64,000 bases of DNA from Bryobacteraceae bacterium (GCA_041946685.1 JBHGAV010000010.1:23370-87369), one strand, 5' to 3'; counted from the stretch's first letter, positions 6,355-37,504 are shown. The notes: a model not told the origin generated them from the letters alone. Translations and numbers: made by a program.

Positions 6355-6963
6355 ATGCCATTCACACTGCCTAACCTGCCCTATGCATTCGACGCGCTGG
6401 AGCCTTACATCGACAAGGCGACCATGGAGATCCACCACGGAAAGCACCATGCCGCCTACGTGACCAACGTGAACAAGGCGCTGGAATCCGCGCCGGAGCT
6501 GGCCGGCAAGAGCCTGGAAGAGCTGCTGGCGGGTAACCTGGCGAGCGTTCCGGAGAGCATCCGCACCGCCGTGCGCAACAACGGCGGCGGGCACGTCAAC
6601 CACGCGATGTTCTGGAGCATCATGGGGCCCAACGCGGGCGGCCAGCCCGCCGGAAAACTGGGCGAGGCCATCAAGAGCACGTTCGGCAGCTTCGACACCT
6701 TCAAGGAGAGACTGACGGCGGCCGGCATGGGGCGCTTCGGCTCCGGTTGGGCGTGGCTGGTCAAGGACCAGGCGGGCAAGCTGGACATCTACTCGACGGC
6801 CAACCAGGACAGTCCCCTCATGGAGGGCAAGTTCCCCATCATGGGCGTGGACGTCTGGGAGCACGCCTACTACCTGAAGTATCAGAACCGCCGCGCCGAA
6901 TACCTGGCCGCCTGGTGGAACGTGGTGAACTGGAAGGAAGTCGAGAAGCGCTTCCTGGGTTAG
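6355..6963 (+). CDS. sodA: Superoxide dismutase, Mn-type (Fe/Mn SOD family)
   Basis: 202 aa with [33 protein letters not shown] (Mn-type pattern) and [15 protein letters not shown]. An AGGAGA SD sequence precedes the ATG. Confidence 0.9.
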
Positions 6964-6968
6964 CGCGG

Positions 6969-6989
6969 GGCGGGACTGGCGCTCCCGCC
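6969..6989 (+). terminator. Possible stem-loop after sodA (GGCGGGA-N7-TCCCGCC)
   Basis: 7-bp perfect inverted repeat 6 nt after the sodA stop codon. There is no U-tract, so at best it is a weak or non-canonical terminator. Confidence 0.3.
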
Positions 6990-7031
6990 TGACAACAGCG
7001 GCCATGTATACTGTCATGCGTGCCGGTCTGC

Positions 7032-10120: not shown

Positions 10121-10132
10121 GATCTGTTCCAG

Positions 10133-21022: not shown

Positions 21023-21148
21023 GGGAACTCCCTTCAGTGGGACATACTACCACGGATAGGCTGCCCGCTGAGGCTGATCTGGAAACCGGCGTTTAACTCT
21101 GCGCGTCTCGGATCTCATAGGATGGTAGGTGTGGGAAGGAGGACGGGC

Positions 21149-23648: not shown

Positions 23649-23874
23649 TGCGGTGATTATAGCGGATCGCAGCCGTCTCGCAGCAGCAATCGCAGCGCGA
23701 GCGAGGAGGTCAGGCGCGCAGGATCGGCGAACGCGAAATGGCTTCAACGCCTCGAAGCGACGAGAAGATGGAACGGGCTAATTGTTGCAGGGCAAAACTG
23801 GCCCGAAAAGCGTCGAGTTTCCCCACGTCGATTGAGGAAGTTTTCGGCAGCCTCGTTTCGCGAACAAAATGAGT

Positions 23875-23902
23875 TTTAGACCTGAAAATACTCTGATATA
23901 CT
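23875..23902 (+). promoter_or_regulatory. Candidate sigma70-like promoter upstream of hydrogenase cluster 1 (TTTAGA-16 nt-TATACT)
   Basis: Lies in the lower-GC part of the 360-bp intergenic region, about 105 nt upstream of the hdrA ATG. Motif-only prediction. Confidence 0.25.
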
Positions 23903-24008: not shown

Positions 24009-26051
24009 ATGAACCTTGAGGGGATTTCGGAGAAGGCGGGCAACAAGGAGGGGGGCAGCGCGCCGCGCGTTGGAGTTTTCGTCTGCCATTGCGGCGGCAA
24101 CATCTCCGATGTAGTGGATGTGGAGCGCGTGGCGTCGGAAGCGGCCAAGCTGCCCGGCGTTGTTTGCACGATGACACACATGTTCTGCTGCTCGGATCCG
24201 GGTCAGGGCATGATCGAGCAGAAGATCCGTGAACTCGGACTGAACCGCGTCATCGTGGCGGCGTGCTCACCGAGCCTGCACGAAATGACGTTCCGGCGGA
24301 CGGTCGCGCGTGCCGGATTGAACCAGTACCTGTTCGAGCATTCCAACATTCGTGAACAGGTGTCGTGGGTCATCGAGGATCGCGAATTGGCTACGCAGAA
24401 GGCCTTCAGGCTTGTCCGGGCGGCGGTGGCAAGGTCGACGCATCTGGTTCCCCTGGACAAGCGCAGGATCCCGATTCATCCCTCCGCTCTGGTGATCGGA
24501 GGAGGCGTCGCGGGACTGACGGCAGCCCGCGACATGGCCGCGCGCGGGATCGAAGTGGTGTTGATCGAATCCGGACCCTTCCTCGGCGGGCGGATGGCGC
24601 AGCTTCACAGGATCTATCCGACGGGCCAGGTGGCGCGCGAGATACTCGACCCTCTGATCCGCGAGGTCACCTCGCACCCGAACGTTACGGTCCATACGAA
24701 CGCCCAATTGGAAAGCGCGAGCGGGTTCATCGGCGACTTCAGGACGACGGTGCGGATCACTCCGCGCGGCGCGACCAGCGAGTGCACCGACCCGCAGGCC
24801 GTGATCGACGCCTGCCCCGAAGAGTCTCTGGACCAGTTCAACCTCGGCCTTTCCAAACGCAAGGCGATCTACCTTCCCTATGAAGGGTGCTATCCCGCCA
24901 TTCCGGCGATCGACTGGCGGACCTGCACCAAGTGCGGCGCCTGCGTGGAGGCTGCGGGAGGCAAGGGGATCGACCTGGACGAGCAGCCGTCCCGGGTCGA
25001 GATCCGCTCCGGCGCCATCGTGCTGGCCGTCGGCCTGAACACGTACCCGGTCCGCCACGGCGAGTACGGATTCGGGGAGTTTCCCGAGGTGATCACTCTC
25101 GCGCAGCTCAACCGGCTGCTCGATCCGACCGGTCCGACCAAGGGCAAGGTTGCCGTTAACGGCCGGCCGCTGCGGAGCGTGGGGTTCATGCACTGCGTCG
25201 GCAGCCTTCAGCGCAAAGGCATCCACAAGCCGATGCGCGACGGCAAGATCAATGAGTACTGCAGCCGGGTTTGCTGCACCACGACCATGCACACGGCCGC
25301 CGAATTGAAGCAGCAGCAGCCCGACCTCCAGGTCTACGACTTCCACGAGGACATTCGGACATACGGGCGGCGGCACGAGGGCTATTACGACAAAGTCTGC
25401 CAGCTCGGCGTGTCGTTCATCCGGTTTGACCCGCTGCGGCCGCCGCGCGTGGTGCGGGATCCGCAGGGCGAGTCCCCGCTGGTGGTGCGCACTTTTGACC
25501 GCCTGACATTCGGTGAGGAGATAGAAGTCCCGCTGGACCTGCTGGTGCTGGCGACGGGGCTGGTGGCCCGCGACATGAGCACACTCGTGGACCTGTACCG
25601 CTGCTCCGTGGGCGCGGACCGGTTTCTGATGGAGGTGCACCCGAAGCTGCGACCGGTGGAATTGGCGGCTTCGGGGCTGTTTTTGGCCGGCACGGTCCAG
25701 GGGCCGATGGACATTACCGAATCGACCGCTGCCGCCGCGGCGGCGGCGGCGAAGGCTTCGTCGCTCATCACCACCGGCGAGATCGAGCTGGATCCCTTCG
25801 TGGCCTACGTTCAGGAAGATGTCTGCAGCGGCTGCCGCGTCTGCTTGACCGTGTGCCCGTTTGCGGCCATTTCTCGGGACGAAGCCAAGGGCAAAGCCGT
25901 CGTCAACGAGGCTCTGTGCACGGGATGCGGAACGTGCGTGGCAACGTGCCCGTCCAACGCCCTGCAGCAACTGGGATTCGAGGATGTGCAGGTGAAGTCG
26001 GAGCTGCTGGCCCTGCTGGAGCAACCCGGGGAGCCGGTGGCGGTGGGCTGA
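24009..26051 (+). CDS. hdrA: Heterodisulfide reductase subunit A-like flavoprotein (HdrA / QmoB-like), cluster 1
   Basis: 680 aa. N-terminal VGVFVCHCGGNIS, FAD motif VIGGGVAGLTAA, the HdrA Cys block HCVGS...YCSRVCC, and a C-terminal 2x[4Fe-4S] ferredoxin domain (CSGCRVCLTVCP / CTGCGTCVATCP). Confidence 0.85.
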   Translation: MNLEGISEKAGNKEGGSAPRVGVFVCHCGGNISDVVDVERVASEAAKLPGVVCTMTHMFCCSDPGQGMIEQKIRELGLNRVIVAACSPSLHEMTFRRTVARAGLNQYLFEHSNIREQVSWVIEDRELATQKAFRLVRAAVARSTHLVPLDKRRIPIHPSALVIGGGVAGLTAARDMAARGIEVVLIESGPFLGGRMAQLHRIYPTGQVAREILDPLIREVTSHPNVTVHTNAQLESASGFIGDFRTTVRITPRGATSECTDPQAVIDACPEESLDQFNLGLSKRKAIYLPYEGCYPAIPAIDWRTCTKCGACVEAAGGKGIDLDEQPSRVEIRSGAIVLAVGLNTYPVRHGEYGFGEFPEVITLAQLNRLLDPTGPTKGKVAVNGRPLRSVGFMHCVGSLQRKGIHKPMRDGKINEYCSRVCCTTTMHTAAELKQQQPDLQVYDFHEDIRTYGRRHEGYYDKVCQLGVSFIRFDPLRPPRVVRDPQGESPLVVRTFDRLTFGEEIEVPLDLLVLATGLVARDMSTLVDLYRCSVGADRFLMEVHPKLRPVELAASGLFLAGTVQGPMDITESTAAAAAAAAKASSLITTGEIELDPFVAYVQEDVCSGCRVCLTVCPFAAISRDEAKGKAVVNEALCTGCGTCVATCPSNALQQLGFEDVQVKSELLALLEQPGEPVAVG

Positions 26052-26061
26052 GAGGAGAACC

Positions 26062-26571
26062 ATGACGCAGATTGCGGCAGATCATGGAGAAGAGCGGGCG
26101 CAGGTCTGGCAGCCGCGTATCGTGGGCTTTCTGTGTTTCTGGTGCTCGTACACGGGCGCTGACAGCGCGGGCACGGCCCGCATGAAATACGCTCCGAACG
26201 TGGACATTATCAAGGTCATGTGTTCCGGACGGATTGACCCGGAGTTGATCACGATGGCGTTCGCGCGAGGGGCGGACGGAGTGATGGTGCTCGGCTGCCA
26301 CATCGGCGACTGTCACTACGTGTCGGGCAATCACAAGACGATGGTGCGCATGCCTCTGCTGAAGCGCCTGCTCGCCGATCTCGGCATCGAGCCGGAACGC
26401 TTCCGGCACGAATGGGTGAGCGCGGCCGAAGGCGAGAAGTTCAGCCGGCTGGTGACCGAGATGACCGAGCAGGTGCGAGCGCTGGGGCCGTTGAACTGGC
26501 CCCGGCTGATGCACCAGCGGGGCGTCGGCCACGGACAGGATCTTCATCCGTGGGGCGGGGGGCACGCATGA
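26062..26571 (+). CDS. mvhD: Methyl-viologen-reducing hydrogenase delta subunit (MvhD), cluster 1
   Basis: IVGFLCFWCSYTGAD...VMCSGRIDP...GADGVMVLGCHIGDCHY is the MvhD/FlpD Cys pattern. Confidence 0.85.
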   Translation: MTQIAADHGEERAQVWQPRIVGFLCFWCSYTGADSAGTARMKYAPNVDIIKVMCSGRIDPELITMAFARGADGVMVLGCHIGDCHYVSGNHKTMVRMPLLKRLLADLGIEPERFRHEWVSAAEGEKFSRLVTEMTEQVRALGPLNWPRLMHQRGVGHGQDLHPWGGGHA

Positions 26572-27536
26572 GCGCGAACGGCAAGCTGAAAGTGGGAATG
26601 TACTGGGCCTCCAGTTGCGGCGGCTGCGACATTTCGCTGCTGGAGATCGGAACGCGGATTCTCGACCTCATCCAGATCGCCGACGTCGTTTTCTGGCCCT
26701 GCGCCGCGGATTTCAAGTATCAGGACGTGGCGAACTACCCCGATGGACACATCGACGTCTGCTTTTACAACGGCGGCGTGCGCAACAGCGAGCAGGAAGA
26801 GGTGGCGCGGCTGCTGCGCCGGAAGAGCAAGACGCTGGTGGCCTACGGAGCTTGCGCCGGCGACGGTGGAATCCCGGCCCTGGCCAACTTCACGACGAAG
26901 GAGGCCATCTTCGCCGCCGCCTATCATGACAACCCTTCGCTCGACAACCCGGGAGGGGTGGAGCCGCAACCGGAGTTCGACGCGGCCGTGGGCAAGCTCC
27001 ATATTCCGCGCTTCTATCCGGCGGTGCTGCAACTGAAGGACGTCGTGCCCGTGGACTACGTGCTGCCCGGGTGCCCGCCGCAGGCGGACCGGGTCTGGGA
27101 GTCCATCCAGGCGCTCGTTTCGGGAGCCGTGCCGGCCAGGAACGAGGCGGTCCGGGTCGGATGTGCGGACAAGACGGTCTGCGAGGAGTGCCCTCGGGAA
27201 AAGCGCCTGGTCAAGATCAAACAGTTCCGGCGCCATCACCAGTTCCGCCCCGAGCCGGGCTGGTGTCTGCTGGAGCAAGGGATTCTGTGCATGGGCCCGG
27301 CGACACGAAGCGGCTGCGGCGCGCTTTGTCTGAAGGCCGACATGCGTTGCGAGGGCTGCTACGGGGCGCCGGCGGCCGTGAGCGACCAGGGGGCCGCCAT
27401 GGTGGGCGCCATCGGGTCCCTGCTGGATGCCGGGTCGGAAGACCGGGCGCGGGAACTGGTCGGGGAGATCGCCGATCCCTCGGGCAGCTTCTATCGCTTC
27501 ACCATGTCGTCGAGCATGATGAAGGTCCGCCGTTAG
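26568..27536 (+). CDS. mvhG: [NiFe]-hydrogenase small subunit (MvhG-like), cluster 1, no Tat signal
   Basis: ATG 26568 overlaps the mvhD stop (ATGA). The product starts MSANGKLKVGMYWASSCGGCDISLLE. Distal FeS Cys motifs are present (CEECPREK, CMGPATRSGCGALCLKADMRCEGCYG). No RRxF signal is present, so the enzyme is cytoplasmic. Confidence 0.85.
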   Translation: MSANGKLKVGMYWASSCGGCDISLLEIGTRILDLIQIADVVFWPCAADFKYQDVANYPDGHIDVCFYNGGVRNSEQEEVARLLRRKSKTLVAYGACAGDGGIPALANFTTKEAIFAAAYHDNPSLDNPGGVEPQPEFDAAVGKLHIPRFYPAVLQLKDVVPVDYVLPGCPPQADRVWESIQALVSGAVPARNEAVRVGCADKTVCEECPREKRLVKIKQFRRHHQFRPEPGWCLLEQGILCMGPATRSGCGALCLKADMRCEGCYGAPAAVSDQGAAMVGAIGSLLDAGSEDRARELVGEIADPSGSFYRFTMSSSMMKVRR

Positions 27537-27550
27537 AGGGGAAGGATGAG

Positions 27551-29065
27551 ATGAGCACCGTCACCACAGCGAACGGCCAGGGTTACCGGCGGATCAGCAT
27601 CGACCCGGTGACCAGACTGGAAGGCCACGGCAAGATCGACATTTTCCTGGACCGGGAAGGAAACGTAGCCGACTGCTTCTTCCAGGTCCCCGAGTTGCGG
27701 GGATTCGAGAAGTTCTGCGAGGGCCGGCCGGTCGAGGAGCTGCCGAGGATCACCCCGCGCATCTGCGGAGTCTGCCCCGAGGCGCACATGATGGCCAGCG
27801 CCAAGGCCTGCGATGCGGTCTATGGAGCGGAACTGCCGCTCACGGCGAAGCTGCTGCGCGAGTTGCAGTACAACATCTTCTATGTGACCGACCACGCCAC
27901 CCACTTCTATGCGCTGGGCGGGCCGGATTTCGTCATGGGGCCGAAGAGCGACCCGGCCACGCGCAATCTGATCGGAGTCATCGGCAAAGTCGGGCTGGAG
28001 ATCGCCGGGCAGGTGCTGAAGTGCCGCGCCTGGGGACACGAAGCGGCGGGCATCTTCGGCGGCAAGCCGGTGAACCCGGCCAACGCCATCCCCGGCGGCA
28101 TGAGCAAGGGGCTGAACAAGGACGAGCGCCAGCGGGTGGAAGAGATCTGCCGCTTCATGGTCGAGTTCGGCAAGCTGACGCTGAAGATCCTGCACGACGT
28201 GGTTCTGGCGAACCGGGAGTACGTGGACCTCATTTTGAACGGGCCTTACATGCACCGCACCTACTCGATGGGGCTCGTGGACGAGAAGAACCAGGTCAAT
28301 TTCTATGACGGCATGGTGCGGGTCGTCGATCCCGAGGGCAAGGAGCTGTGCCGTTACGCGCCGCCCGACTACACCAAGCACATTGCCGAGCGGGTGGAGC
28401 CTTGGAGCTATCTCAAGTTCCCGTACCTGAAGGCCGTCGGCTGGAAAGGGTTCGTTGACGGAATGGAGTCGGGAGTGTACACGGCGACTCCACAATCCCG
28501 GCTCAATGCCGGCGATGGCATGAATAGCCCGCTGGCGCAGGAAGCCTACGAGGAGTACTTCGAGACCCTGACGGGCGACCGGAGCGGGCGAAAGCCCGTC
28601 CATCACAGGCTCGCCATCCATTGGGCACGCTGTGTCGAGTTGATGAACGCCGCCGAGCGGAGCCTGGAGCTGATCCAGCACCCCGAGATCACTCACCCGG
28701 AGAATTTCCGGGTGGTCTGCGACAAGACACCGCACGAGGGCGTGGGGATCGTCGAAGCGCCGCGGGGCACGCTCACGCACCATTACGTCACCGACGAGAA
28801 CGGCATCGTCAGGAAGGCCAACCTGGTGGTCGGCACGACGAACAACCACGCGGCCATCTGCATGTCGATCAAGCAGGCCGCCGAGGGCCTGATACGCAAG
28901 GGCGTCGAGGTCACCGAAGGGGTGCTGAACATGGTGGAAATGGCATTCCGGGGTTACGACCCCTGTTTTGGGTGCGCCACGCATAGTCTGCCTGGGCAGA
29001 TGCCGCTGGTGGTGCGGGTCCGAGACTTCGAAGGACAGGTTTTGTCGGAGGCCAGGCGGGACTGA
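27551..29065 (+). CDS. mvhA: [NiFe]-hydrogenase large subunit (MvhA-like, group 3c by synteny), cluster 1
   Basis: In-frame ATG at 27551. Motifs present are RLEGHGKI, N-terminal RICGVCP and C-terminal DPCFGCATH, followed by a 26-aa tail that is the substrate for an endopeptidase. Confidence 0.9.
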   Translation: MSTVTTANGQGYRRISIDPVTRLEGHGKIDIFLDREGNVADCFFQVPELRGFEKFCEGRPVEELPRITPRICGVCPEAHMMASAKACDAVYGAELPLTAKLLRELQYNIFYVTDHATHFYALGGPDFVMGPKSDPATRNLIGVIGKVGLEIAGQVLKCRAWGHEAAGIFGGKPVNPANAIPGGMSKGLNKDERQRVEEICRFMVEFGKLTLKILHDVVLANREYVDLILNGPYMHRTYSMGLVDEKNQVNFYDGMVRVVDPEGKELCRYAPPDYTKHIAERVEPWSYLKFPYLKAVGWKGFVDGMESGVYTATPQSRLNAGDGMNSPLAQEAYEEYFETLTGDRSGRKPVHHRLAIHWARCVELMNAAERSLELIQHPEITHPENFRVVCDKTPHEGVGIVEAPRGTLTHHYVTDENGIVRKANLVVGTTNNHAAICMSIKQAAEGLIRKGVEVTEGVLNMVEMAFRGYDPCFGCATHSLPGQMPLVVRVRDFEGQVLSEARRD

Positions 29066-29080
29066 GGGAGAACGATCAGC

Positions 29081-30400
29081 ATGGCGAAGATCAAGGAACG
29101 CTACGACGGGCTGGTGGTGGGCGGCGGCATCGCCGGCATGCAGGCGGCGCTGGATCTGGCGGGCCAGGGATACGAAGTACTTCTGGTGGAGCGGGAGCCC
29201 TCGATCGGCGGCATCATGGTCGGCCTGAACAAAGTCTTTCCGACGCTGGATTGCAGCAGTTGTATCTGTACGCCGCGCATGGCCGAAACTGCGCACCACG
29301 AGCGCATCACCTTGCTCACCTACACGGAAGTGGATGAGGTCCGGCGGGAGGGAAACGGCTTTGAGGTGATGCTGACAAAGAAGCCCCGCTACGTTGTGGA
29401 AGAGGATTGCATCGGGTGCAGCAAGTGCGAGCTCGCCTGCCACGAGTGGGCCCCCCACGAGTTCGACTACGGCCTGGGCGCGCGGGCGGCCATCTACATT
29501 CCACACGGAAACGCCATCCCCCAGGTTCCGGTGCTCGACCCCGACTACTGCATCTTCGACGGCGCATGTGCCAGGGTCTGCCCCACCAACTGCATCGACT
29601 TCACCCAGGAGCCGCAGAAGCTCAAGGTGGACGTGGGCGCCGTGATCATCGCCTCGGGACTCAAGACCACACCCATGGACGCCAAGAAGGAATACGGTGG
29701 CAACAAGTATCCGAACGTCATGAACCCCCTGGCCATGGAGCGGGTGCAGAGCTCGAATGGCCCTTACGGCCACGTGCTGCGGCCCTCGGACGGGAAGGTC
29801 CCCAATTCGGTCGCCTATGTTCAGTGCGCGGGCAGCCGCGACAAGTCCATAGGCGTGCCCTACTGCTCGCGCGTGTGCTGCATGTACGCGCTCAAGCAGG
29901 CGATCATGATCAAACATCAGCGTCACGAGACCGAGGTCACCATCTATTACATGGATATTCGGGCTTTCGGCAAGGGCTATGAGCAGTTCTACCGCCGCGC
30001 GCTGGCCGAGGGTGTCCGCGTGGTGAAGGCCAAGGTAGCCAAGATCACCGAGGTCGGGGATCACGATCTGTCCCTCCGCGTGGAACTGAACGACGAAGGA
30101 GGACGGGTGGCCGACATCCGCCATGACCTTGTGGTGTTGAGCCAGGGGATCATTCCCGGCTGGCGTCCCGATGAGGGACTGGTGCCGGCGGGGCTGGACG
30201 ACGACGGCTTCTTCAAGATCCGGGAGGTGACGACCCGGCCGGCCAACAGCCCCCGGGACGGCATCTTCGTGGCGGGAGTGGCGACCGGCCCGAAGGACAT
30301 TCCCGATGCGATCGTGGAGGCGGGCGCGGCGGCGATGGAGGCCGCCATGTACCTTCATCGCACCCAGCCGCGCAAGCCGGCGATGGCGTGTGCGGATTGA
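29081..30400 (+). CDS. Short HdrA-like flavoprotein (QmoA-like)
   Basis: 439 aa. FAD motif VVGGGIAGMQAA, an inserted 2x[4Fe-4S] domain (CIGCSKCELAC, ACARVCPTNC) and the HdrA-type QCAGSRD...YCSRVCC block are present. It lacks the N- and C-terminal domains of full-length HdrA. Confidence 0.75.
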   Translation: MAKIKERYDGLVVGGGIAGMQAALDLAGQGYEVLLVEREPSIGGIMVGLNKVFPTLDCSSCICTPRMAETAHHERITLLTYTEVDEVRREGNGFEVMLTKKPRYVVEEDCIGCSKCELACHEWAPHEFDYGLGARAAIYIPHGNAIPQVPVLDPDYCIFDGACARVCPTNCIDFTQEPQKLKVDVGAVIIASGLKTTPMDAKKEYGGNKYPNVMNPLAMERVQSSNGPYGHVLRPSDGKVPNSVAYVQCAGSRDKSIGVPYCSRVCCMYALKQAIMIKHQRHETEVTIYYMDIRAFGKGYEQFYRRALAEGVRVVKAKVAKITEVGDHDLSLRVELNDEGGRVADIRHDLVVLSQGIIPGWRPDEGLVPAGLDDDGFFKIREVTTRPANSPRDGIFVAGVATGPKDIPDAIVEAGAAAMEAAMYLHRTQPRKPAMACAD

Positions 30401-30429
30401 GCGGGGAGTCGCGCGACAGGAGGCATCCC

Positions 30430-30723
30430 ATGGGAGACGCGAAACGCAACTGGCGGGAGGATCTGAAGGTGTTCCGTGAACGCCAGGGGGGAGTGAGCGA
30501 GGCGAAGAAGGCGCGGACCAAGGAGACCCGGGAAACGGTGAAGGCGATCGAGGGCGCGCTCAGGGGCGGTCCGCTGACTGTGCCGGAGATCTCCGCTGCG
30601 ACCAAGATTCCCAGCCAGAAGGTCCTCTGGCATCTAATGGCGATGAAAAAATACGGCAGGGTCGCCGAGGCGGGCCCGGCGGGCGAGTACTACCGCTACG
30701 AGCTTAAGGAGGCATCATCGTGA
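30430..30723 (+). CDS. Small winged-helix (wHTH) protein of unknown role
   Basis: ATG 30430 is preceded by AGGAGG with a 6-nt spacer. The 97-aa product has a basic N-terminus followed by LTVPEISAATKIPSQKVLWHLMAMKKYGRVAE..YYRYEL, an HTH-plus-wing pattern. Its stop overlaps the next gene's GTG start. Confidence 0.6.
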   Translation: MGDAKRNWREDLKVFRERQGGVSEAKKARTKETRETVKAIEGALRGGPLTVPEISAATKIPSQKVLWHLMAMKKYGRVAEAGPAGEYYRYELKEASS

Positions 30724-31880
30724 GCGTTCGTGTCGATCCCAGAGTTACCGGTCAACTGGCCCACTATGGAGGGGAAACGGCCGTCAAGTGCTTCAACTGC
30801 GGCAACTGCACCGCAGTCTGCTCGCTCACCAACCAGGATGCCGTTTTCCCCCGCCGCTACATCCGGTACATCCAGCTCGGCCTCAAGGACAAGATGCTCG
30901 GCAGCCTCGACCCCTGGCTGTGCTACTACTGCGGGGACTGCTCGGATACCTGCCCCCGCGAGGCCCAGCCGGGCAAGCTCATGATGGCCAGCCGCCGCTG
31001 GCTGATCAGCATGTACGACTGGACCGGGCTGAGCCGCCTCATGTACGGCCAGGAACGATGGGAGGTGATCATGCTCCTGCTGGTCGCCCTCCTGGTGTTG
31101 GGATTGTTCACGGTCCCCGCCGATTTCGGTTTCCGGCTGCTCGCCTCACATCCCGAAGCGCGTGATAGCGTCAACCTCGGTTATTTCGCGCCGAAGGAGA
31201 TCGTGCACTGGGGCGACCTGACGCTGGCCGCCCTTCTGGGAGGACTGCTCCTGAGCAATGCGGCGCGGATGTTCTGGTTTGTCCGGCGGCAGGGTCCGCC
31301 GCTTCGCTTCGGCGCGCTGATCAGCCAGATCGGAGAGTTTGTGGTTCAAGGACTGACGCAGAAACGCTGGCGCGAATGCGCGTCGGACTCCACCAAGCAC
31401 TGGCTGCGCCATCTGTTGCTGGTCACCGCCTACGGAACGATGTTCGCTCTTGTCGTCGTCTTTCTGAAGTGGTTTCAGGTGGAGGATACGTCGTTCCACT
31501 GGACGAGCCTGCTCGGCTACTATTCCACGCTGGTTCTGATGGGGGCCACGCTGTGGATCATACAGGATCGCAGGAAGAAGAAGGATCAGATCCACAAGTA
31601 TAGCGACATGGCCGACTGGCTGTTTCCGATTCTGCTGTTCCTCACCAGCCTCTCCGGCATCCTGCTGCACCTGGCGCGGCTGGTCAACCTGGCGATGCCG
31701 ACGTATTACTTTTACGTAATTCACCTGATGATCGCGGTGCCCATGCTGGTGGTGGAAGTGCCCTTCGGCAAGTGGTCCCACCTGTTCTACCGGCCGCTGG
31801 CGCTGTACCTGCTGGGAGTTCAGAGCAAGAGCCGGGCCCGGGAGACGGCCGGCGTCAAGGCAACCCCGGTGGCGGCGTGA
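30720..31880 (+). CDS. QmoC-like membrane protein: HdrC-like 2x[4Fe-4S] domain fused to NarI/HdrE-like six-TM (putative dihaem b) domain
   Basis: GTG 30720 (GTGA overlap) is preceded by AGGAGG. The N-terminus carries CFNCGNCTAVC and CYYCGDCSDTCP. About six TM helices follow with conserved-looking His residues (VHWGD, HWLRHLLL, LLHLARL, VIHLM, FGKWSHLFYRP). Confidence 0.7.
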   Translation: MSVRVDPRVTGQLAHYGGETAVKCFNCGNCTAVCSLTNQDAVFPRRYIRYIQLGLKDKMLGSLDPWLCYYCGDCSDTCPREAQPGKLMMASRRWLISMYDWTGLSRLMYGQERWEVIMLLLVALLVLGLFTVPADFGFRLLASHPEARDSVNLGYFAPKEIVHWGDLTLAALLGGLLLSNAARMFWFVRRQGPPLRFGALISQIGEFVVQGLTQKRWRECASDSTKHWLRHLLLVTAYGTMFALVVVFLKWFQVEDTSFHWTSLLGYYSTLVLMGATLWIIQDRRKKKDQIHKYSDMADWLFPILLFLTSLSGILLHLARLVNLAMPTYYFYVIHLMIAVPMLVVEVPFGKWSHLFYRPLALYLLGVQSKSRARETAGVKATPVAA

Positions 31881-32383
31881 GCGGGACCAGCACACGTCGC
31901 ACCGCCGTACTGGGTTTGGGCAACCCCGTGGTTGCCGACGATCGCGTGGGCTTGGCGGTGGCCGAGCGAATCCGGAGGTTGCTCGAGGAGTCCCCCATCA
32001 AGGACGTCGAGGTGCTGGAGAGCATGCGCGGCGGCTTTGAGCTGATCGACTTGCTGAGCGGTTTCGCTCATGCCGTGATCATCGACTGCCTGACGGTGCC
32101 CGATCCCACGCCGGGGCGCGTGCATCGCCTGGCTCTGGACAACGTCGCCGGCAGCGCCCGGCTGATCAACGCGCACGAGATCAGCATCTGGGAGGCGTTC
32201 GAACTGGCCAGGAAGATGGGCATCGACATGCCGGAGACCGTCGACATCTTCGCCATCGAGGGAGGAGACACCCTCACGATGACGGAGGAGATGACCCCGC
32301 TGGTGGCTGCGGCGGTCGAACCGCTGGCCCGCCAGATCCACACTGCGCTGGCGGCTGGGATGGGCGCTGCACCTCGATTTTAG
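31877..32383 (+). CDS. [NiFe]-hydrogenase maturation endopeptidase (HyaD/HycI/FrhD family)
   Basis: GTG 31877 overlaps the upstream stop (GTGA). AVLGLGNPVVADDRVGLAVAE is the GNxxxxDDGxG motif. 168 aa. Confidence 0.8.
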   Translation: MSGTSTRRTAVLGLGNPVVADDRVGLAVAERIRRLLEESPIKDVEVLESMRGGFELIDLLSGFAHAVIIDCLTVPDPTPGRVHRLALDNVAGSARLINAHEISIWEAFELARKMGIDMPETVDIFAIEGGDTLTMTEEMTPLVAAAVEPLARQIHTALAAGMGAAPRF

Positions 32384-32388
32384 GTCCG

Positions 32389-32410
32389 TGCCCCAACTGC
32401 ATCTGGGGCA
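32389..32410 (+). terminator. Stem-loop after protease gene (TGCCCCA-N8-TGGGGCA)
   Basis: 7-bp perfect stem 6 nt after the stop codon, at the start of a 203-bp lower-GC spacer between the two hydrogenase clusters. The downstream tract is A/T-containing but is not a clean U-run. Confidence 0.4.
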
Positions 32411-32586
32411 AATCGCCCAATCTTCCCGCAACCTGGGGCGAATGAAGCCGCAAGTCTATTAATTTCTACAAAAAGACCCGATTTTCCCAATATGGGTTAT
32501 TGGCCCCTAAAGTGCGGGTGTAATCCATACATCACAGCAGGCCTCGGGTTTTTGTCTAACTAGCGGTCATCACGGGAGTCATTATT

Positions 32587-33171
32587 GTGCTGGCACTCAT
32601 CCGAAGGAAGATGAAGTTCCAGCGGGAAGCTGATCCGGTCTGGGCGGACGAGATCAGCAGGCAGCCTGGAATCGATCGAATCTGGTCCTGCATCCAGTGC
32701 GGCACCTGCTCGGGAACGTGTCCCCTCTCCATCTACATGGATTTTACGCCAAGGCGCATTATCGCCCTGGTGCGCGAAGGATTCCGCAGCGACGCTCTGA
32801 GCAGCCAGACCATCTGGCTTTGCGCATCGTGCTATTCCTGCGCTTCTCATTGTCCTCAGGACGTCCACATAACCGACTTGATGTACAGCTTGAAGCGGGA
32901 AGCGATCAAGCATCGCATGTACCCGCGGCGTTTTCCGATTCCGGTGCTCGCGCGCGAGTTCTTCAACCTGGTGCGGCGGCACGGGCGCAACAGTGAGGTC
33001 TGGCTGGTTGTCAGAATGGCTCTGAAGTCCAATCCGTTCGTGCTGCTGACGATGGCCAAGTACGGATTCGGACTGATGCGCACGGGCCGCATGAGCCTGC
33101 GGCAGGAGCGTATCCAGCGCACGCACGAACTCCAGAGCGAACTTGCCGCGCCGCAGGAGGTTTCGCGATGA
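32587..33171 (+). CDS. hdrC: Heterodisulfide reductase subunit C (2x[4Fe-4S])
   Basis: CIQCGTCSGTCP and CASCYSCASHCP motifs are present. The start is uncertain (GTG 32587 or ATG 32611). ATGA overlap with hdrB. Confidence 0.85.
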   Translation: MLALIRRKMKFQREADPVWADEISRQPGIDRIWSCIQCGTCSGTCPLSIYMDFTPRRIIALVREGFRSDALSSQTIWLCASCYSCASHCPQDVHITDLMYSLKREAIKHRMYPRRFPIPVLAREFFNLVRRHGRNSEVWLVVRMALKSNPFVLLTMAKYGFGLMRTGRMSLRQERIQRTHELQSELAAPQEVSR

Positions 33172-34088
33172 GCGCCAATGAGAACTGCCGGTCGAGATAC
33201 GCCTACTTCCCCGGGTGCTCGCTGAGCGCCACCGGGCTCGCCTACGACGAGAGCCTGAAGGTGCTGTTCCGGCTGCTGGGAGTGAAGCTGGATGAACTGG
33301 AAGACTGGAACTGCTGCGGCGCTACGTCCTACATGTGCATTGACGAAGGCGCGGCGTTCCTGATGTCGGCACGGAACCTGTCCATCGCGCACAAGATGGG
33401 CGCCAGCGAGGTTCTGGCGCCGTGCAGCGCCTGCTACCTGGTGCTGCGTAAGACGCAGGACTACGTCGAGCATCACCCCGCGGTTGCCGAGAAGGTGAAA
33501 CAGTCTCTGCGGCAGGCCGGGCTGGAGCCGATGAATTCGGTGAAGGTCAGGCACCCGCTGGAGATGCTGTACAACGACGTGGGCGTGGAGCAGATCAAGT
33601 CCCTGTCCAAGCGCAAGTGGCGCGGCGGACGGATCGCCTGCTACTACGGGTGTCAGGCCGTGCGGCCATACGACGAGGTGGACCGGTCGCATAATCCGAT
33701 GCGCATGGACGAGTTGATGAACGCCGTGGGCGCCCCGACGGTGGACTACTCGCTGAAGACCAAGTGCTGCGGCGGCTCGCTCACCGGGACGATGCATGAG
33801 GTCGGGTTGCGCCTCAACTACATCCTCCTCAAGGAAGCCGCCCGAAAGGGCGCCGAGGCGATCGTCACCATCTGCCCGCTCTGCCAGTTCAACCTGGACG
33901 TCTACCAGGCCGAGATCGCCAAGCAGAGCGGCGAACGCTTCGACATGCCGATTCTGTACTTCTCTCAGGTGCTCGGATGGGCGCTCGGGGGCGAGATGCG
34001 GCAACTGGGGCTGCAGCGCTCGCTTGCCGGCCAGAGCTTGATACGCCGGTGGTTCGCCGCCCACGAGGAGGTGGAAGCGTATGTCTGA
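33168..34088 (+). CDS. hdrB: Heterodisulfide reductase subunit B (two CCG domains)
   Basis: Two complete CCG-domain Cys patterns are present: PGC...NCCGA...PCSAC and YGC...KCCGGS...CPLC. Confidence 0.9.
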   Translation: MSANENCRSRYAYFPGCSLSATGLAYDESLKVLFRLLGVKLDELEDWNCCGATSYMCIDEGAAFLMSARNLSIAHKMGASEVLAPCSACYLVLRKTQDYVEHHPAVAEKVKQSLRQAGLEPMNSVKVRHPLEMLYNDVGVEQIKSLSKRKWRGGRIACYYGCQAVRPYDEVDRSHNPMRMDELMNAVGAPTVDYSLKTKCCGGSLTGTMHEVGLRLNYILLKEAARKGAEAIVTICPLCQFNLDVYQAEIAKQSGERFDMPILYFSQVLGWALGGEMRQLGLQRSLAGQSLIRRWFAAHEEVEAYV

Positions 34089-36075
34089 GCGGAACGGCGC
34101 AGTTCGAATCGGAGTCTATGTCTGCCATTGCGGCAGCAACATCGCGGCTGTCGTGGACTGCAAGGACGTGGCCGACTACGGCCGCGGATTGCCGGGCGTC
34201 GCGATTTCGAGGGACTACAAGTATCTTTGTTCGGATCCGGGGCAGGAACTGATCCGGCAGGACATTCGAGAGCACAATCTGGACCGCATCGTGGTGGCGT
34301 CCTGCTCGCCGCACCTTCACGAGCACACGTTCCGCACGGCCGTCGAACAGGCCGGTCTGAACGCCTACTACCTGCACATGGTCAACATCCGCGAGCACAA
34401 CTCGTGGGTGCACCAGGACCGGGCCAAAGCCACCGACAAGGCTAAGGACATGGTCCGCGCGGCGGTGCGCCGCGTGGCGCGGCACCAGCCGCTCAAGAGG
34501 GGCAGCGTTCCGATCGATCCCGCCGTGCTCGTCGTCGGGGGGGGCATCGCCGGCATCCATGCCGCGCTGACGCTGGCCAACGCCGGAAAGAAGGTCTATC
34601 TGGTGGAGAAGCAGCCGTCCATCGGCGGCCACATGGCGATGTTCGATAAGACCTTCCCGACGCTAGACTGCGCGGCCTGCATCCTGACCCCCAAGATGTC
34701 GTCGGTGAAGGCGCACAAGAACATCACGCTTTGGTCGAACGCCGAGGTCACCGAGGTGAGCGGCTACGTCGGGAACTTCGACATAAAGGTGACCCGCTGG
34801 CCGCGGTACATCGACGAGGACCTCTGTTCGGGCTGCCTGGAGTGCATCGATGCTTGCGTTTACAAGGACGCCAAGTTCCCGGACCAGTTCAACATGGGGC
34901 TGAGCAAGCGCAAGCCGATCTACATTCCCTTTCCGCAGGCGGTCCCCCAGGTTCCGGTGATCGATACGGAAACCTGTATCCAGTTCAAGAGCGGCAAGTG
35001 CAAGAAGAGCTGCCTGGCGGCCTGCGCCGACCGCAAGGCCATCAACTTCCAGCAGAAGGAGACGGTGGAGCAGATACGCGTGGGGGCCATTGTCCTGGCA
35101 ACCGGCTTCCAGGCGTTCGACGCCAATCAGGTGCCATACTACGGCTACGGCACGTACCCGAACGTGTACACGTCGCTCGAAATCGAGCGGCTGGTGAATG
35201 CTTCGGGCCCGACCAGCGGCCACGTCGTCCTGCGGGACGGGCGCAAGCCGAAGTCGATCGGGATCATTCACTGCGTCGGCTCACGCGATACGCAAACCAA
35301 CCGCTGGTGCTCGCGGGTCTGCTGCATGTACTCGCTGAAGCTGGCGCATCTGCTCAAGGAACACACCGGCGCGGAGGTGTTCAACTTCTACATCGACATG
35401 CGCACCCCCGGCAAGGGTTTCGAAGAGTTCTATCAGAAGCTGCTGAACGAGGGTGTTCACTTCGTTCGCGGCCGCGTGGCGGAGGTCACGGACTGGGCCC
35501 TGGACCCCACCGAGGACAATAAGCTGGTCCTGCGAGTGGAAGATACTCTGCTGGGCACGGTGCGCCGGATTCCGGTGGACATGGTCGTTCTCTCCGTCGG
35601 CATTCAGCCGCAACCCGACGCCCCCGAAGTCCGGCGGATGTTCAACATCTCCTGCGCCAGCGAGGGCTTCTTCCTGGAGCGGCACCCCAAGCTGGCGCCG
35701 GTCAACACCTTCACCGACGGAATCTTCCTGGCCGGCTGCTGCCAGGGGCCGAAGGACATTCCCGACACGGTGGCGCAGGCCGGAGCGGCGGCCGCGGAGG
35801 CGCTGGCCCTTATCGATGCCGGGGAGGTGGAAACGGAACCCTACACGGCCTATGTGGTCGAAGAGGAGTGCTCGGGCTGCCGCACCTGCGTGCCCCTCTG
35901 CCCGTACGGCGCGATACAGTTCAACGCGGAGAAGAACCGGGCGTTCGTTCAGGAAGTGCTCTGCAAGGGCTGCGGCACATGCGTCGCGGCCTGTCCGTCG
36001 GGCTCGATCGGGCAGCACCTGTTTGAAGACGACCAGATTTTCGACGAGATCGAGGGGGTGCTAGCCAATGCCTGA
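34081..36075 (+). CDS. hdrA: Heterodisulfide reductase subunit A, cluster 2
   Basis: 664 aa. IGVYVCHCGSNIA, VVGGGIAGIHAA, HCVGSRD...WCSRVCC and the C-terminal CSGCRTCVPLCP / CKGCGTCVAACP motifs are present. Confidence 0.9.
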   Translation: MSERNGAVRIGVYVCHCGSNIAAVVDCKDVADYGRGLPGVAISRDYKYLCSDPGQELIRQDIREHNLDRIVVASCSPHLHEHTFRTAVEQAGLNAYYLHMVNIREHNSWVHQDRAKATDKAKDMVRAAVRRVARHQPLKRGSVPIDPAVLVVGGGIAGIHAALTLANAGKKVYLVEKQPSIGGHMAMFDKTFPTLDCAACILTPKMSSVKAHKNITLWSNAEVTEVSGYVGNFDIKVTRWPRYIDEDLCSGCLECIDACVYKDAKFPDQFNMGLSKRKPIYIPFPQAVPQVPVIDTETCIQFKSGKCKKSCLAACADRKAINFQQKETVEQIRVGAIVLATGFQAFDANQVPYYGYGTYPNVYTSLEIERLVNASGPTSGHVVLRDGRKPKSIGIIHCVGSRDTQTNRWCSRVCCMYSLKLAHLLKEHTGAEVFNFYIDMRTPGKGFEEFYQKLLNEGVHFVRGRVAEVTDWALDPTEDNKLVLRVEDTLLGTVRRIPVDMVVLSVGIQPQPDAPEVRRMFNISCASEGFFLERHPKLAPVNTFTDGIFLAGCCQGPKDIPDTVAQAGAAAAEALALIDAGEVETEPYTAYVVEEECSGCRTCVPLCPYGAIQFNAEKNRAFVQEVLCKGCGTCVAACPSGSIGQHLFEDDQIFDEIEGVLANA

Positions 36076-36532
36076 CCTGGTGAACATACAGACACAGTTC
36101 GAACCGAAGATCGTGGCTTTCTTCTGTAATTGGTGCACCTACCTGGCGGCCGACCTGGCGGGAACGTCGCGCCTGAAGTACGCTCCCAACACGCGTGTGA
36201 TCCGCGTGATGTGCTCGGGCCGGGTGGACCCGCAGTTCGTCCTGGAAGCGTTCGCCAAGGGCGCCGACGGCGTGCTGATCGGCGGATGTCATCCCGGCGA
36301 CTGCCACTACCAGGAGGGCAACTACAAAGCGCTGCGCCGCTTCCACCTTCTCAAGCGGATGGTCAGGGAAATGGGGATCGAGGAGGACCGTCTGCGGCTG
36401 GAGTGGATCTCGGCCGCAGAAGGGGATCGCGTGAAAGTGGTGATCAACGACATGGTGGAGAAGGTCCGCGCTTTGGGTCCGCTCAAGATCAAGCAGCCGG
36501 ATGAAGCCGTGGCGGAGGAGGTGACCGCATGA
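36068..36532 (+). CDS. mvhD: MvhD, cluster 2
   Basis: IVAFFCNWCTYLAAD...VMCSGRVDP...GADGVLIGGCHPGDCHY. Overlaps hdrA by 8 nt. Confidence 0.9.
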   Translation: MPDLVNIQTQFEPKIVAFFCNWCTYLAADLAGTSRLKYAPNTRVIRVMCSGRVDPQFVLEAFAKGADGVLIGGCHPGDCHYQEGNYKALRRFHLLKRMVREMGIEEDRLRLEWISAAEGDRVKVVINDMVEKVRALGPLKIKQPDEAVAEEVTA

Positions 36533-37500
36533 GCGCCAAGCCGAAGGTCGCCTTCTATTGGTGCGCATCCTGCGGCGGCTGCGAGGAAGCCGTCGTGGAC
36601 CTGGCCGAGGGGATACTCGACGTCGCAGCGGCGATCGAGATCGTGATGTGGCCCGTGGCCATGGACTTCAAGCGCAAGGACATCGAGGCCATGGAGGACG
36701 GCAGCATCGTGGCCACGTTCCTCAACGGGGCGATCCGCTCGACCGAGCAGGAAGAGATGGCGCGCTTGCTGCGGCGCAAGTCGCAGTTCATGATCGCCTT
36801 CGGGGCCTGCGCGCAGCTCGGAGGCATCCCCGGCCTGGCGAATCTGTGGGACCGCAAGAGTATCTTTCAGAGGGTCTATTCGGAAGTCGGCAGCATTGTC
36901 AATCCCGAGGGGGTTGTCCCCCAGGTGAACCACGCGGACAACGGCCGCAAGCTCCACCTTCCGGCCTTCTATGACACCGTTAAGACCCTGGAGCAGGTGG
37001 TGGACGTGGACTACCTGGTCCCCGGCTGCCCGCCCACGCCCGACCTGCTGAAGCAGGCGGTGGACACCCTCCTCAGCGGCGAGCTCCCGCCCAAGGGCAC
37101 GGTGCTGGCTCCGGACCGGGCGCTGTGCGACGAGTGCCCGCGGAAGGAGACCAAGCCCGACAAGCTCTCCATTGCGGGATTCAAGCGGCCGCATCAGGTG
37201 TTGATCGACCAGGAGAAGTGCCTGCTGGCTCAGGGGCTGATGTGCATGGGCCCGGCTACCCGGGGAGGCTGCGGCACGCGCTGCATCCAGGGCAACATGC
37301 CCTGCACCGGCTGCTTCGGCCCGACGAGCCGGGTCAGGGATTTCGGCGCAAAGGCCATGTCCGGGTTGGCTTCCCTGCTGGAAGCCAAGGACGACGAGGG
37401 CATCATCGAAGCTTTGGGCTCGGTCCCGGACCCGGTCGGCAGCTTCTATCGGTACAGCCTTCCGGCGTCCCTGCTGGTGAGAAAGAAGGTGGAGGCCTAA
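36529..37500 (+). CDS. mvhG: [NiFe]-hydrogenase small subunit (MvhG-like), cluster 2
   Basis: ATGA overlap with mvhD. KVAFYWCASCGGCEEAVVDL and the distal Cys motifs CDECPRKE and CMGPATRGGCGTRCIQGNMPCTGCFG are present. No Tat signal. Confidence 0.9.
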   Translation: MSAKPKVAFYWCASCGGCEEAVVDLAEGILDVAAAIEIVMWPVAMDFKRKDIEAMEDGSIVATFLNGAIRSTEQEEMARLLRRKSQFMIAFGACAQLGGIPGLANLWDRKSIFQRVYSEVGSIVNPEGVVPQVNHADNGRKLHLPAFYDTVKTLEQVVDVDYLVPGCPPTPDLLKQAVDTLLSGELPPKGTVLAPDRALCDECPRKETKPDKLSIAGFKRPHQVLIDQEKCLLAQGLMCMGPATRGGCGTRCIQGNMPCTGCFGPTSRVRDFGAKAMSGLASLLEAKDDEGIIEALGSVPDPVGSFYRYSLPASLLVRKKVEA

Positions 37501-37504
37501 TTCC

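Follow-up and report, generated by a model that had tools for sequence, protein, structure and literature searches.

A widespread bacterial gene string that probably couples an Mvh-type [NiFe]-hydrogenase to a Qmo-like membrane module

Three described systems combine HdrA-like flavoproteins with partners resembling those discussed here, namely QmoABC of Desulfovibrio, the methanogen MvhAGD-HdrABC complex and the Mvh-Qmo-Hdr cluster of certain Archaeoglobi. QmoC of sulfate reducers carries two haems b, which quinols can reduce, while docking of a hydrogenase has been predicted for the MvhD-like domain of QmoB (PMC3333476). In HdrA, the inserted domain binds ferredoxin (PMC9430772). The Mvh-Qmo-Hdr cluster, reported in Ca. 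Methanoglobus nevadensis (10.1101/2022.12.01.518715; ISME J 2023) and Ca. M. hypatiae (10.1101/2023.09.08.556235), is highly expressed and has been proposed to bifurcate the electrons of H2 to menaquinone and ferredoxin, although it is biochemically uncharacterised (10.1101/2022.12.01.518715; 10.1101/2023.09.08.556235).

The window analysed here, a stretch of 64,000 nucleotides from the genome of a soil member of the Acidobacteria (Bryobacteraceae), harbors eight consecutive genes on the plus strand between positions 24009 and 32383 (Table 1), and the gene and domain calls agree with the single string that had been recognised in a first-pass annotation. An independent gene caller returned identical boundaries on a Logan contig for the products of 439, 97, 386 and 168 aa. 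The several 4-nt overlaps noted earlier amount to three, at mvhD/mvhG (ATGA), at the winged-helix/qmoC-like junction and at the qmoC-like/protease junction (both GTGA), and the remaining junctions are gaps of 10 to 29 nt. The sole promoter candidate upstream of hdrA is not significant on its own, as one such site was found where 2.4 would be expected by chance in 17 kb, and scanning for promoters and terminators gave no information on co-transcription of the eight genes. As had been stated, no CCG domain (HdrB) is present within the string and no apr, sat or dsr domain was detected by Pfam/NCBIfam in the part of the window that was scanned (40 ORFs between 7019 and 52573). We propose, on a modest balance of probability, that the eight products form one membrane-anchored complex with a bifurcating path from H2 to ferredoxin and menaquinone.

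Table 1. Features of the eight-gene string and of the adjacent paralogous set
Feature	Position	Strand	Remarks
Promoter candidate, sigma-70-like (TTTAGA-16-TATACT)	23875..23902	+	sole match upstream of hdrA; weak
Long HdrA, 680 aa	24009..26051	+	NCBIfam HdrA2, 645 bits
MvhD, [2Fe-2S] adaptor subunit	26062..26571	+	Pfam FlpD, 3.9e-52; aligns to HdrA2 profile positions 644-774
MvhG, [NiFe]-hydrogenase small subunit	26568..27536	+	VhuG, 8e-64; without Tat signal
MvhA, [NiFe]-hydrogenase large subunit, Mvh/group 3c-like	27551..29065	+	VhuA, 4.6e-107
Short HdrA, 439 aa, QmoA-like architecture	29081..30400	+	covers only HdrA residues ~145-570
ArsR/SmtB-like winged-helix protein, 97 aa, no Cys	30430..30723	+	resembles an ordinary ArsR-type regulator by fold
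QmoC-like membrane subunit, 386 aa	30720..31880	+	HdrC-like N-terminal domain and six predicted TM helices
Hydrogenase maturation endopeptidase, 168 aa	31877..32383	+	TIGR00072, 1.1e-25; only one in window
Adjacent canonical set hdrC-hdrB-hdrA-mvhD-mvhG-mvhA	32587..39010	+	starts 204 bp downstream of the eight-gene string
hdrC	32587-33171	+	
hdrB (CCG domain)	33168-34088	+	
Second hdrA	34081-36075	+	
Second mvhD	36068-36532	+	
Second mvhG	36529-37500	+	
Second mvhA	37505-39010	+	

By sequence similarity, the hydrogenase itself appears Mvh/group 3c-like. MvhA, MvhG and MvhD, the [NiFe] ligand motifs, a full-length HdrA and the lack of a Tat signal were all found, the last of these having been noted before and being borne out by the start of MvhG (MSANGKLKVGMYW), from which a twin-arginine is absent. 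MvhA, whose closest solved relative is the MvhA chain 5odc_F (2.8e-109), contains RICGVCPEAH at residue 70 (RxCGxCxxxH) and DPCFGCATH at residue 470 (DPCxxCxxH), the latter followed by a C-terminal tail of 26 aa on which proteolytic maturation would act. The protease gene co-occurs with the hydrogenase among relatives, as 19 of 27 loci with a hydrogenase have it after the qmoC-like gene, versus none of 30 which lack a hydrogenase.

The two HdrA paralogues differ in a complementary manner. An end-to-end alignment of the long protein with M. marburgensis HdrA (8rvu_a) scores 551 bits (3.9e-164). The protein has an N-terminal domain and a FAD/TrxR-like domain, an inserted ferredoxin domain that is degenerate and predicted to hold a single cluster and, at its C-terminus, a 2x[4Fe-4S] ferredoxin domain. 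The short protein, confirmed as HdrA-like by its match to methanogen HdrA (393 bits), lacks the N-terminal domain and the C-terminal ferredoxin domain; it consists of the FAD/TrxR-like domain and an intact inserted ferredoxin domain, in which CxxCxxCxxxC and CxxDxxCxxxCP are both present. Both of these motifs are retained in all 27 short HdrAs, one cluster of the inserted domain is lost in all 22 long HdrAs, and both are lost from the long HdrA of hydrogenase-less relatives. Such complementary loss of Fe-S motifs would fit a heterodimer of the QmoA/QmoB kind. The decay of a ferredoxin-binding domain in the long paralogue, together with the lack of any ferredoxin gene in the cluster, could also be taken to indicate a plain H2:menaquinone oxidoreductase, a respiratory uptake hydrogenase facing the cytoplasm, in which electrons would pass from Mvh through the flavins and Fe-S clusters of HdrA and the QmoC-like protein to quinone with no involvement of ferredoxin. 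We consider this unlikely, given that the inserted domain is complete in every short HdrA, that two FAD-binding paralogues would make a costly wire, and that cytoplasmic H2 oxidation with quinone reduction conserves little energy unless coupled to ferredoxin.

The 386-aa protein had been mapped onto QmoC, a fusion of an HdrC-like domain with an HdrE/NarI-like membrane domain, and the first of these elements is well supported: its N-terminus matches HdrC (7bkb_C, 1.7e-11) and contains eight invariant cysteines in two CxxCxxCxxxC motifs. Six transmembrane helices are present in the AlphaFold model (pLDDT 83), and the protein aligns over its full length with the NCBIfam qmoC profile NF038018 (profile positions 8-358 of 360, 2.4e-55). 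Its score of 188.5 bits falls under the equivalog cut-off of 300 bits, as does that (202 bits) of QmoC from L075, a canonical-looking qmoABC locus without apr. Conserved residues comprise Cys220 and seven histidines, of which His231, His335 and His354 are ~99% conserved and His163, His260, His292 and His317 85 to 96% conserved, these being found on both inferred membrane faces. The NarI part of the description fared less well. Nitrate_red_gam was the sole recurrent Pfam match of the membrane domain, in 10 of 20 members with a best E-value of 1.5e-4, and the window copy reached 16.6 bits against a threshold of 22.9; Foldseek returned nothing at E <= 1e-3 (EtfD probability 0.92, NarI 0.54), a sequence-profile search of the membrane domain against solved structures gave no match, and hhalign with Escherichia coli NarI gave a probability of 0.3%. 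Since the QmoC cut-off was missed and significant fold or NarI matches were not obtained, binding of two haems b and coupling to quinone are putative, being suggested by the conserved histidines on both inferred faces and by the full-length similarity to QmoC. The lack of a significant match between the membrane domain and any cytochrome b of known structure, NarI included, together with the occurrence of Asn or Ser in place of His317 in 11 of 81 homologues (and a gap in a twelfth), is what might be expected if the protein served only as a membrane anchor or passed electrons to another membrane or periplasmic acceptor. This reading appears highly improbable in view of the full-length homology to a family whose founding member has two haems b (PMC3333476), the seven histidines, three of them almost invariant and the other four strongly conserved, on both inferred faces, and the recurring matches to the NarI family.

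In 79 of 80 loci, the qmoC-like gene is preceded by one for a winged-helix protein. This protein is probably dedicated to the QmoC-like subunit as a partner and is a candidate subunit, assembly factor or regulator; its resemblance in fold to an ordinary ArsR-type regulator counts against a place in the complex.

A gene-order search of contigs, which returned 80 loci, all bacterial, upheld the string as a conserved unit. Of 80 species-level genomes, 28 show the same gene order, and these represent at least two phyla (Acidobacteriota, NC10/Methylomirabilota and others), the hosts being soil and sediment bacteria; in 32 further genomes, mostly Anaerolineales, the module occurs without the hydrogenase. 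These hydrogenase-less operons (L032-L080 except L075) share the four core proteins at 30 to 55% identity, an MvhD-like gene and the winged-helix gene directly upstream of the qmoC-like gene; they differ in lacking mvhG, mvhA and the protease gene and in the order mvhD-like, short hdrA, long hdrA. Such a distribution suggests that the long HdrA, the short HdrA, the winged-helix protein and the QmoC-like protein constitute a portable membrane module which takes different inputs. Because the long HdrA and MvhD are retained where the hydrogenase is missing, both would appear to belong with the QmoC-like protein rather than with HdrBC.

The wording of the first-pass annotation, in which the Qmo-like module took the place of HdrBC, is inapt for this locus, as a canonical hdrC-hdrB-hdrA-mvhDGA set lies next door. 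The proximity of hdrC and hdrB, on the same strand and with no terminator predicted between the protease gene and hdrC, raises the question of whether a single complex is formed at all: the first hydrogenase and long HdrA could pair with the neighbouring HdrCB as a soluble bifurcating enzyme, leaving the short HdrA, winged-helix and QmoC-like proteins to form a Qmo-like complex of their own with some other partner, and the occurrence of the Qmo-like module on its own in other genomes is in keeping with this. Such a split is, in our view, very unlikely. The downstream set possesses its own hdrA, mvhD, mvhG and mvhA, whose products are just 42 to 56% identical to those of the first set, and it probably specifies a separate soluble complex; the retention of the long HdrA and MvhD in hydrogenase-less operons likewise marks them as partners of the QmoC-like protein. 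Furthermore, hdrB is missing nearby in 19 of the 24 hydrogenase-containing relatives with enough downstream sequence, which indicates that the hydrogenase-QmoC-like module is independent of HdrBC.

In the single bifurcating complex that we favor, H2 would be oxidised in the cytoplasm by MvhAG, MvhA having been matured by the protease, and MvhD would relay the electrons to the HdrA heterodimer. To this, the long paralogue would contribute the N-terminal domain and the C-terminal ferredoxin domain and the short paralogue the inserted domain, the ferredoxin-binding element of methanogen HdrA. The electron pair would probably be bifurcated at an HdrA flavin, the uphill electron passing to ferredoxin and the downhill electron reaching menaquinone through the QmoC-like protein, first by its HdrC-like [4Fe-4S] domain and then by the presumed haems b; menaquinone would assume the role of HdrB and the heterodisulfide in methanogens. 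With a potential of ~-75 mV, menaquinone surpasses even CoM-S-S-CoB (~-140 mV) as a high-potential acceptor. The cluster probably feeds electrons from hydrogen to the quinone pool. A fermentative lifestyle is known for many of the host lineages, Anaerolineales and Thermoanaerobaculia among them. This is compatible with a complex that runs mainly in reverse, producing H2 from menaquinol and reduced ferredoxin (confurcation) or by quinol-driven reverse flow as a means of reductant disposal in fermentation or syntrophy; Group 3 hydrogenases are often bidirectional (bioRxiv 10.1101/197269), and confurcation has been proposed for Qmo by Ramos et al. (PMC3333476). That direction is judged quite unlikely on energetic grounds, the mean potential of menaquinol (~-75 mV) and reduced ferredoxin (~-500 mV) being well above that of H+/H2 (-414 mV), so that H2 evolution would require a very low H2 partial pressure.

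Compared with QmoABC of Desulfovibrio (Pires et al. 2003; Ramos et al. 2012, PMC3333476), the window operon has a counterpart for each subunit: a short HdrA-like protein for QmoA, a long HdrA-like protein with an MvhD module for QmoB, and a six-TM protein with an HdrC-like Fe-S domain for QmoC. It differs in that MvhD is a separate protein instead of being fused to QmoB, in the addition of a complete hydrogenase, a protease and a winged-helix gene, in the lack of an aprBA/sat link among the ORFs scanned, and in electron flow that is probably toward quinone rather than from it. The earlier one-to-one mapping onto a split QmoB, QmoA and QmoC holds for domain architecture. Relative to L075, the one qmoABC-like locus available for comparison, identity is 27 to 28% for QmoB, 38% for QmoA and 42% for QmoC (aligned over its full length), and both window HdrAs are nearer to methanogen HdrA, such that their resemblance to Qmo appears architectural rather than orthologous.

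With MvhAGD-HdrABC (PDB 5ODC, 8RVU), the operon shares MvhA, MvhG, MvhD and a full-length HdrA, and its QmoC-like protein retains the HdrC-like domain at the N-terminus. Here, in contrast, a membrane domain follows the HdrC-like domain, the CCG-domain HdrB is absent from the unit, a second, truncated HdrA would replace the homodimer partner, and the acceptor is presumably menaquinone in place of CoM-S-S-CoB.

The closest parallel is the Ca. Methanoglobus cluster, which, by its published description, likewise combines MvhAGD with two homologues of HdrA, one of which was typed as QmoB, and with a cytochrome b in which HdrC and QmoC are fused; aprAB, sat and dsrAB are absent from it. The novelty of the arrangement, which had been left open, is accordingly partial: no description of the bacterial cluster was found in the literature, although the same design has already been recognised, uncharacterised, in Ca. 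Methanoglobus. The archaeal hosts are thermophilic, methane-producing Archaeoglobi as opposed to soil and sediment bacteria, and the bacterial version is far more widespread.

Eight consecutive open reading frames on the plus strand occupy positions 24009 to 32383 of the window (see table), the same boundaries being obtained from an independent gene call (Logan contig). As stated in the first-pass annotation, these genes are tightly packed, and the small hydrogenase subunit lacks a Tat signal, no twin-arginine being present in MvhG. Three junctions are formed by 4-nt overlaps, and the remaining gaps are of 10 to 29 nt. The large subunit, MvhA, harbors both [NiFe] ligand motifs and a cleavable 26-aa tail.

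Features of the window and the basis of their assignment
Feature	Position	Length	Strand	Basis or remark
Radical SAM/SPASM protein	8023-9189		+	Amid glycosyltransferase and epimerase genes; apparently unrelated to the hydrogenase cluster
ORF directly upstream of the cluster	21122-21931	269 aa	+	No Pfam match
Second ORF directly upstream of the cluster	21936-23747	603 aa	-	C-terminal CorA-like match only, weak (9e-6); possibly a transporter of metal (Ni or Mg?)
Long HdrA	24009-26051	680 aa	+	Pfam/NCBIfam
MvhD			+	Pfam FlpD, 3.9e-52
MvhG			+	VhuG, 8e-64
MvhA	27551-29065		+	VhuA, 4.6e-107
Short HdrA	29081-30400	439 aa	+	Pfam/NCBIfam; central FAD and inserted-ferredoxin part only
Second ferredoxin motif of short HdrA	29549-29584	residues 157-168	+	CxxDxxCxxxCP, Asp replacing the second Cys
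Winged-helix protein		97 aa	+	Pfam/NCBIfam
QmoC-like protein	30720-31880	386 aa	+	Full-length NCBIfam qmoC match, 2.4e-55, 188.5 bits (cut-off 300)
Hydrogenase maturation protease	31877-32383		+	Pfam/NCBIfam
Gap between protease and hdrC	32384-32586	204 bp		AT-richer; no predicted terminator and no consensus promoter in a promoter/terminator scan
Canonical hdrC, hdrB (CCG), hdrA, mvhD, mvhG, mvhA	32587-39010		+	Second Mvh set
MauE-like membrane protein	41314-42243		-	Apparently unrelated to the hydrogenase cluster

The hydrogenase of this string had been described in the first-pass annotation as wired to a Qmo-like membrane module "instead of HdrBC", a wording which does not hold for the window locus, as a complete hdrCBA-mvhDGA set adjoins it 204 bp past the protease gene. 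There are, therefore, genes for two Mvh hydrogenases at this locus, the one accompanied by HdrBC and the other by the QmoC-like protein. The proteins of the second set share only 42 to 56% identity with those of the first; the two sets are old paralogues and not the product of a recent duplication. The same tandem arrangement was observed in L002, which is a Bryobacterales MAG, and in four NC10 MAGs (L006, L008, L015, and L029). The two MvhA paralogues of the window are accompanied by a single maturation protease gene; the four NC10 relatives carry two such genes past the second cluster and none past qmoC-like. The genes flanking the two Mvh sets are of a housekeeping nature, and the reported absence of aprAB, sat, and dsr was borne out within the window ORFs scanned, among which no apr, sat, or dsr domain was found. 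The idea of a genomic island was rejected on the basis of the uniform GC content over the region.

With each species represented by a single genome, a scan identified 159 loci encoding a QmoC-like relative, 80 of which were retrieved for analysis, and all window proteins were mapped onto them by tblastn. The gene order to which the first-pass annotation had drawn attention, hdrA-mvhD-mvhG-mvhA-short hdrA-wHTH (winged-helix gene)-qmoC-like, recurs in 28 of the 80 retrieved loci, the hosts of which are Bryobacterales/Solibacteraceae, Holophagae, Thermoanaerobaculales, other Acidobacteriota, and NC10/Methylomirabilales, in addition to one Geobacteraceae MAG and some poorly classified MAGs. A further 32 loci, mostly of Anaerolineales, contain a hydrogenase-less version composed of mvhD-like, short hdrA, long hdrA, wHTH, and qmoC-like genes, which in locus L033 forms a stand-alone five-gene operon (5855-11164); in the hydrogenase-less group (L032 to L080 with the exception of L075; Anaerolineales/Chloroflexota), neither a hydrogenase nor an obvious electron-input enzyme was found nearby. 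A single locus, L075 of a Syntrophobacteraceae MAG, harbors a canonical-looking qmoABC without wHTH, and the upstream region is incomplete in the remaining 19. The wHTH gene precedes qmoC-like in 79 of the 80 loci, and a protease gene follows qmoC-like in 19 of 27 hydrogenase-containing loci versus none of 30 hydrogenase-less loci.

A downstream hdrB was observed in no more than 5 of the 24 hydrogenase-containing loci. The synteny counts indicate, therefore, that hydrogenase, both HdrAs, winged-helix protein, and QmoC-like protein travel together without dependence on HdrBC, which argues for one functional unit and against the rival reading of two unrelated complexes. It argues likewise against a mere use of the neighboring HdrBC by the first hydrogenase. 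MvhA and MvhD of the NC10/Methylomirabilota and related loci (L003, L006, L008, L010, L015, and L029) are 83 to 85% and 78 to 86% identical, respectively, to the window copies, values which, being very high for different phyla, suggest that the entire cluster has recently been transferred horizontally. Regarding cultured hosts, a look-up of seven diverse QmoC-like proteins gave 90% clusters in which only MAG-derived entries were found. The 4.9-kb contig of the Geobacteraceae MAG (L024) carries mvhA, short hdrA, wHTH, qmoC-like, and protease genes, a hint that the Mvh cluster of Geobacter, which has been little studied (GSU2417-2420 in G. sulfurreducens), may have the window-type architecture; no description of its flanking genes was found in the accessible literature.

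The N-terminal 95 residues of the QmoC-like protein, which include eight invariant Cys, gave a match (7bkb_C, 1.7e-11) to the HdrC subunit of Hdr complexes of solved structure, and the AlphaFold model (56 sequences; pLDDT 83, pTM 0.82) contains six long transmembrane helices followed by a C-terminal amphipathic helix. Among 81 homologues, His231, His335, and His354 are approximately 99% conserved and His163, His260, His292, and His317 85 to 96% conserved; Cys220 is conserved as well. If the Fe-S domain is taken to be cytoplasmic, His231, His292, and His354 would lie on the cytoplasmic side and His163, His260, His317, and His335 on the outer side, which would correspond to the pattern expected of two bis-His haems; His335 and His354, 19 residues apart in and just past the sixth helix, could each provide a ligand to one haem.

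A haem-b membrane domain, as proposed, would fit the QmoC homology and the conserved His residues, but no significant match to NarI or to a known fold was obtained. A Foldseek search of the model against the PDB returned nothing at E <= 1e-3, only the HdrC-like domain being confidently matched, and the probabilities were 0.92 for EtfD and 0.54 for NarI. Family and membrane-domain-only HMM profiles yielded no membrane-protein match among all PDB sequences, and hhalign produced no alignment of the membrane-domain profile with Escherichia coli NarI; a NarI fold is not claimed, as the NarI haem ligands could not be mapped without such an alignment. Sub-threshold Pfam Nitrate_red_gam matches were detected in 10 of 20 members (best E-value, 1.5e-4; window copy, 0.0063). 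Desulfovibrio QmoC binds two quinol-reducible haems b (PMC3333476), and this precedent, coupled with QmoC homology and the Pfam matches, suggests that the QmoC-like protein may bind haem and react with quinone. The rival possibility of a protein which binds no haem has the null structural searches in its favor and the conserved His residues against it. In public annotation, the subunit appears merely as "ferredoxin" or "4Fe-4S dicluster domain-containing protein"; the membrane link could, therefore, be missed in metabolic reconstructions which rely on such generic names.

The winged-helix protein shares 100% identity with a hypothetical protein from a Bryobacteraceae MAG, which marks the window as acidobacterial. 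Its 40 detectable homologues are all stand-alone proteins of 84 to 117 aa, none bearing a domain fusion that would prove a subunit role, and Cys is absent from the aligned homologues. The model (pLDDT 81) matches ArsR/SmtB repressors, a generic fold, and the most conserved stretch is a hydrophobic helix, VLWHLMAMKKYG. Its role could be that of a regulator embedded in the gene string or of a subunit that binds protein.

The two HdrA paralogues differ in extent and in cofactor motifs. Long HdrA aligns end to end with Methanothermobacter marburgensis HdrA (551 bits), and short HdrA aligns to residues ~145 to 570 of the same protein, being more similar to the canonical downstream HdrA (43% identity) than to long HdrA (30%). 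Complete long HdrAs numbered 22 among the hydrogenase-containing loci, and in all of these the first inserted-domain CxxCxxCxxxCP motif is absent and a single CxxCxxC is kept, so that one cluster is predicted in this domain; the N-terminal CxC is retained in all 22 and both C-terminal ferredoxin motifs in 21. The short HdrAs keep both inserted-domain motifs (27 of 27), the second being all-Cys in 15 and CxxDxxCxxxCP in 12, among them the window copy; an Asp occupies this Cys position in Pyrococcus furiosus ferredoxin as well. In hydrogenase-less operons, both inserted-domain clusters are lost from 39 of 40 long HdrAs and both motifs are kept in 37 of 40 short HdrAs. In methanogen HdrA, ferredoxin is bound by the inserted domain (PMC9430772). 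Judged from motif content, this complementary Fe-S loss fits an HdrA-long/HdrA-short heterodimer in place of an HdrA homodimer, in which the long HdrA would take in electrons from MvhD and the short HdrA would serve ferredoxin, a testable model for the division of work in a heterodimeric HdrA core.

The earlier assignment of the products to QmoA, a split QmoB, and QmoC stands as regards architecture, the QmoB of L075 possessing N-terminal, C-terminal ferredoxin, and MvhD domains as do HdrA-long plus MvhD, but these share only 27 to 30% identity with it; the mapping onto QmoA and QmoB is an architectural one.

The most likely function, proposed with moderate confidence, is that of a membrane-anchored H2:menaquinone oxidoreductase built on the HdrA heterodimer and probably bifurcating to ferredoxin, in which menaquinone would take the place of heterodisulfide. 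Rival readings, in addition to the two unrelated complexes and the protein without haem mentioned above, are a non-bifurcating wire and reverse operation by confurcation. A broader and distinctly more tentative proposal is that of the bacterial form of an uncharacterized class of flavin-based electron-bifurcating enzymes, with the membrane quinone pool as high-potential acceptor. The paralogues of its asymmetric HdrA-long/HdrA-short heterodimer would share out input and ferredoxin-output functions, its cytochrome b would be QmoC-like, and its winged-helix subunit would be a dedicated one; the donor would be modular, the hydrogenase in Acidobacteriota and NC10 and other donors in Anaerolineales. 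If true, abundant soil bacteria could use H2 both to reduce ferredoxin and to charge the respiratory chain.

In the Acidobacteria literature, Mvh is treated solely as MvhAGD-HdrABC, and a full-text search of an open-access library found no description of the bacterial cluster, an absence which is not proof, nor any biochemical demonstration of a quinone-linked bifurcating hydrogenase. Within the literature searched, the design is described elsewhere only in two genome-based accounts of uncultured or enriched Archaeoglobi. "Ca. Methanoglobus nevadensis" and "Ca. M. hypatiae" have been reported to possess a "Mvh-Qmo-Hdr" cluster, in which MvhAGD is combined with an HdrC-QmoC fusion and two copies of HdrA, one of them typed as QmoB. 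This cluster is highly expressed and lacks genes for sulfate reduction. The authors of these accounts proposed that H2 electrons are bifurcated to menaquinone and ferredoxin; an earlier suggestion, by Ramos et al. (PMC3333476), was that the MvhD-like domain of QmoB has a hydrogenase as its partner. The archaeal cluster has been recognized genomically and not biochemically.

The cluster described here is a widespread bacterial member of this genomically recognized archaeal kind and not a new kind of system; what is new is the range of bacterial phyla in which it occurs, the sister operon devoid of hydrogenase, the conservation of the winged-helix partner, and the complementary HdrA Fe-S loss. 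As the design is conserved in Acidobacteriota, Methylomirabilota, and others, sampled from soils and sediments, and in hydrogenase-less form in Anaerolineales, the idea is no longer confined to one archaeal genus and takes in several lineages of bacteria. For a long-standing question, that of the docking partner of the MvhD-like domain of QmoB in sulfate reducers, the bacterial cluster provides a natural "Rosetta stone".
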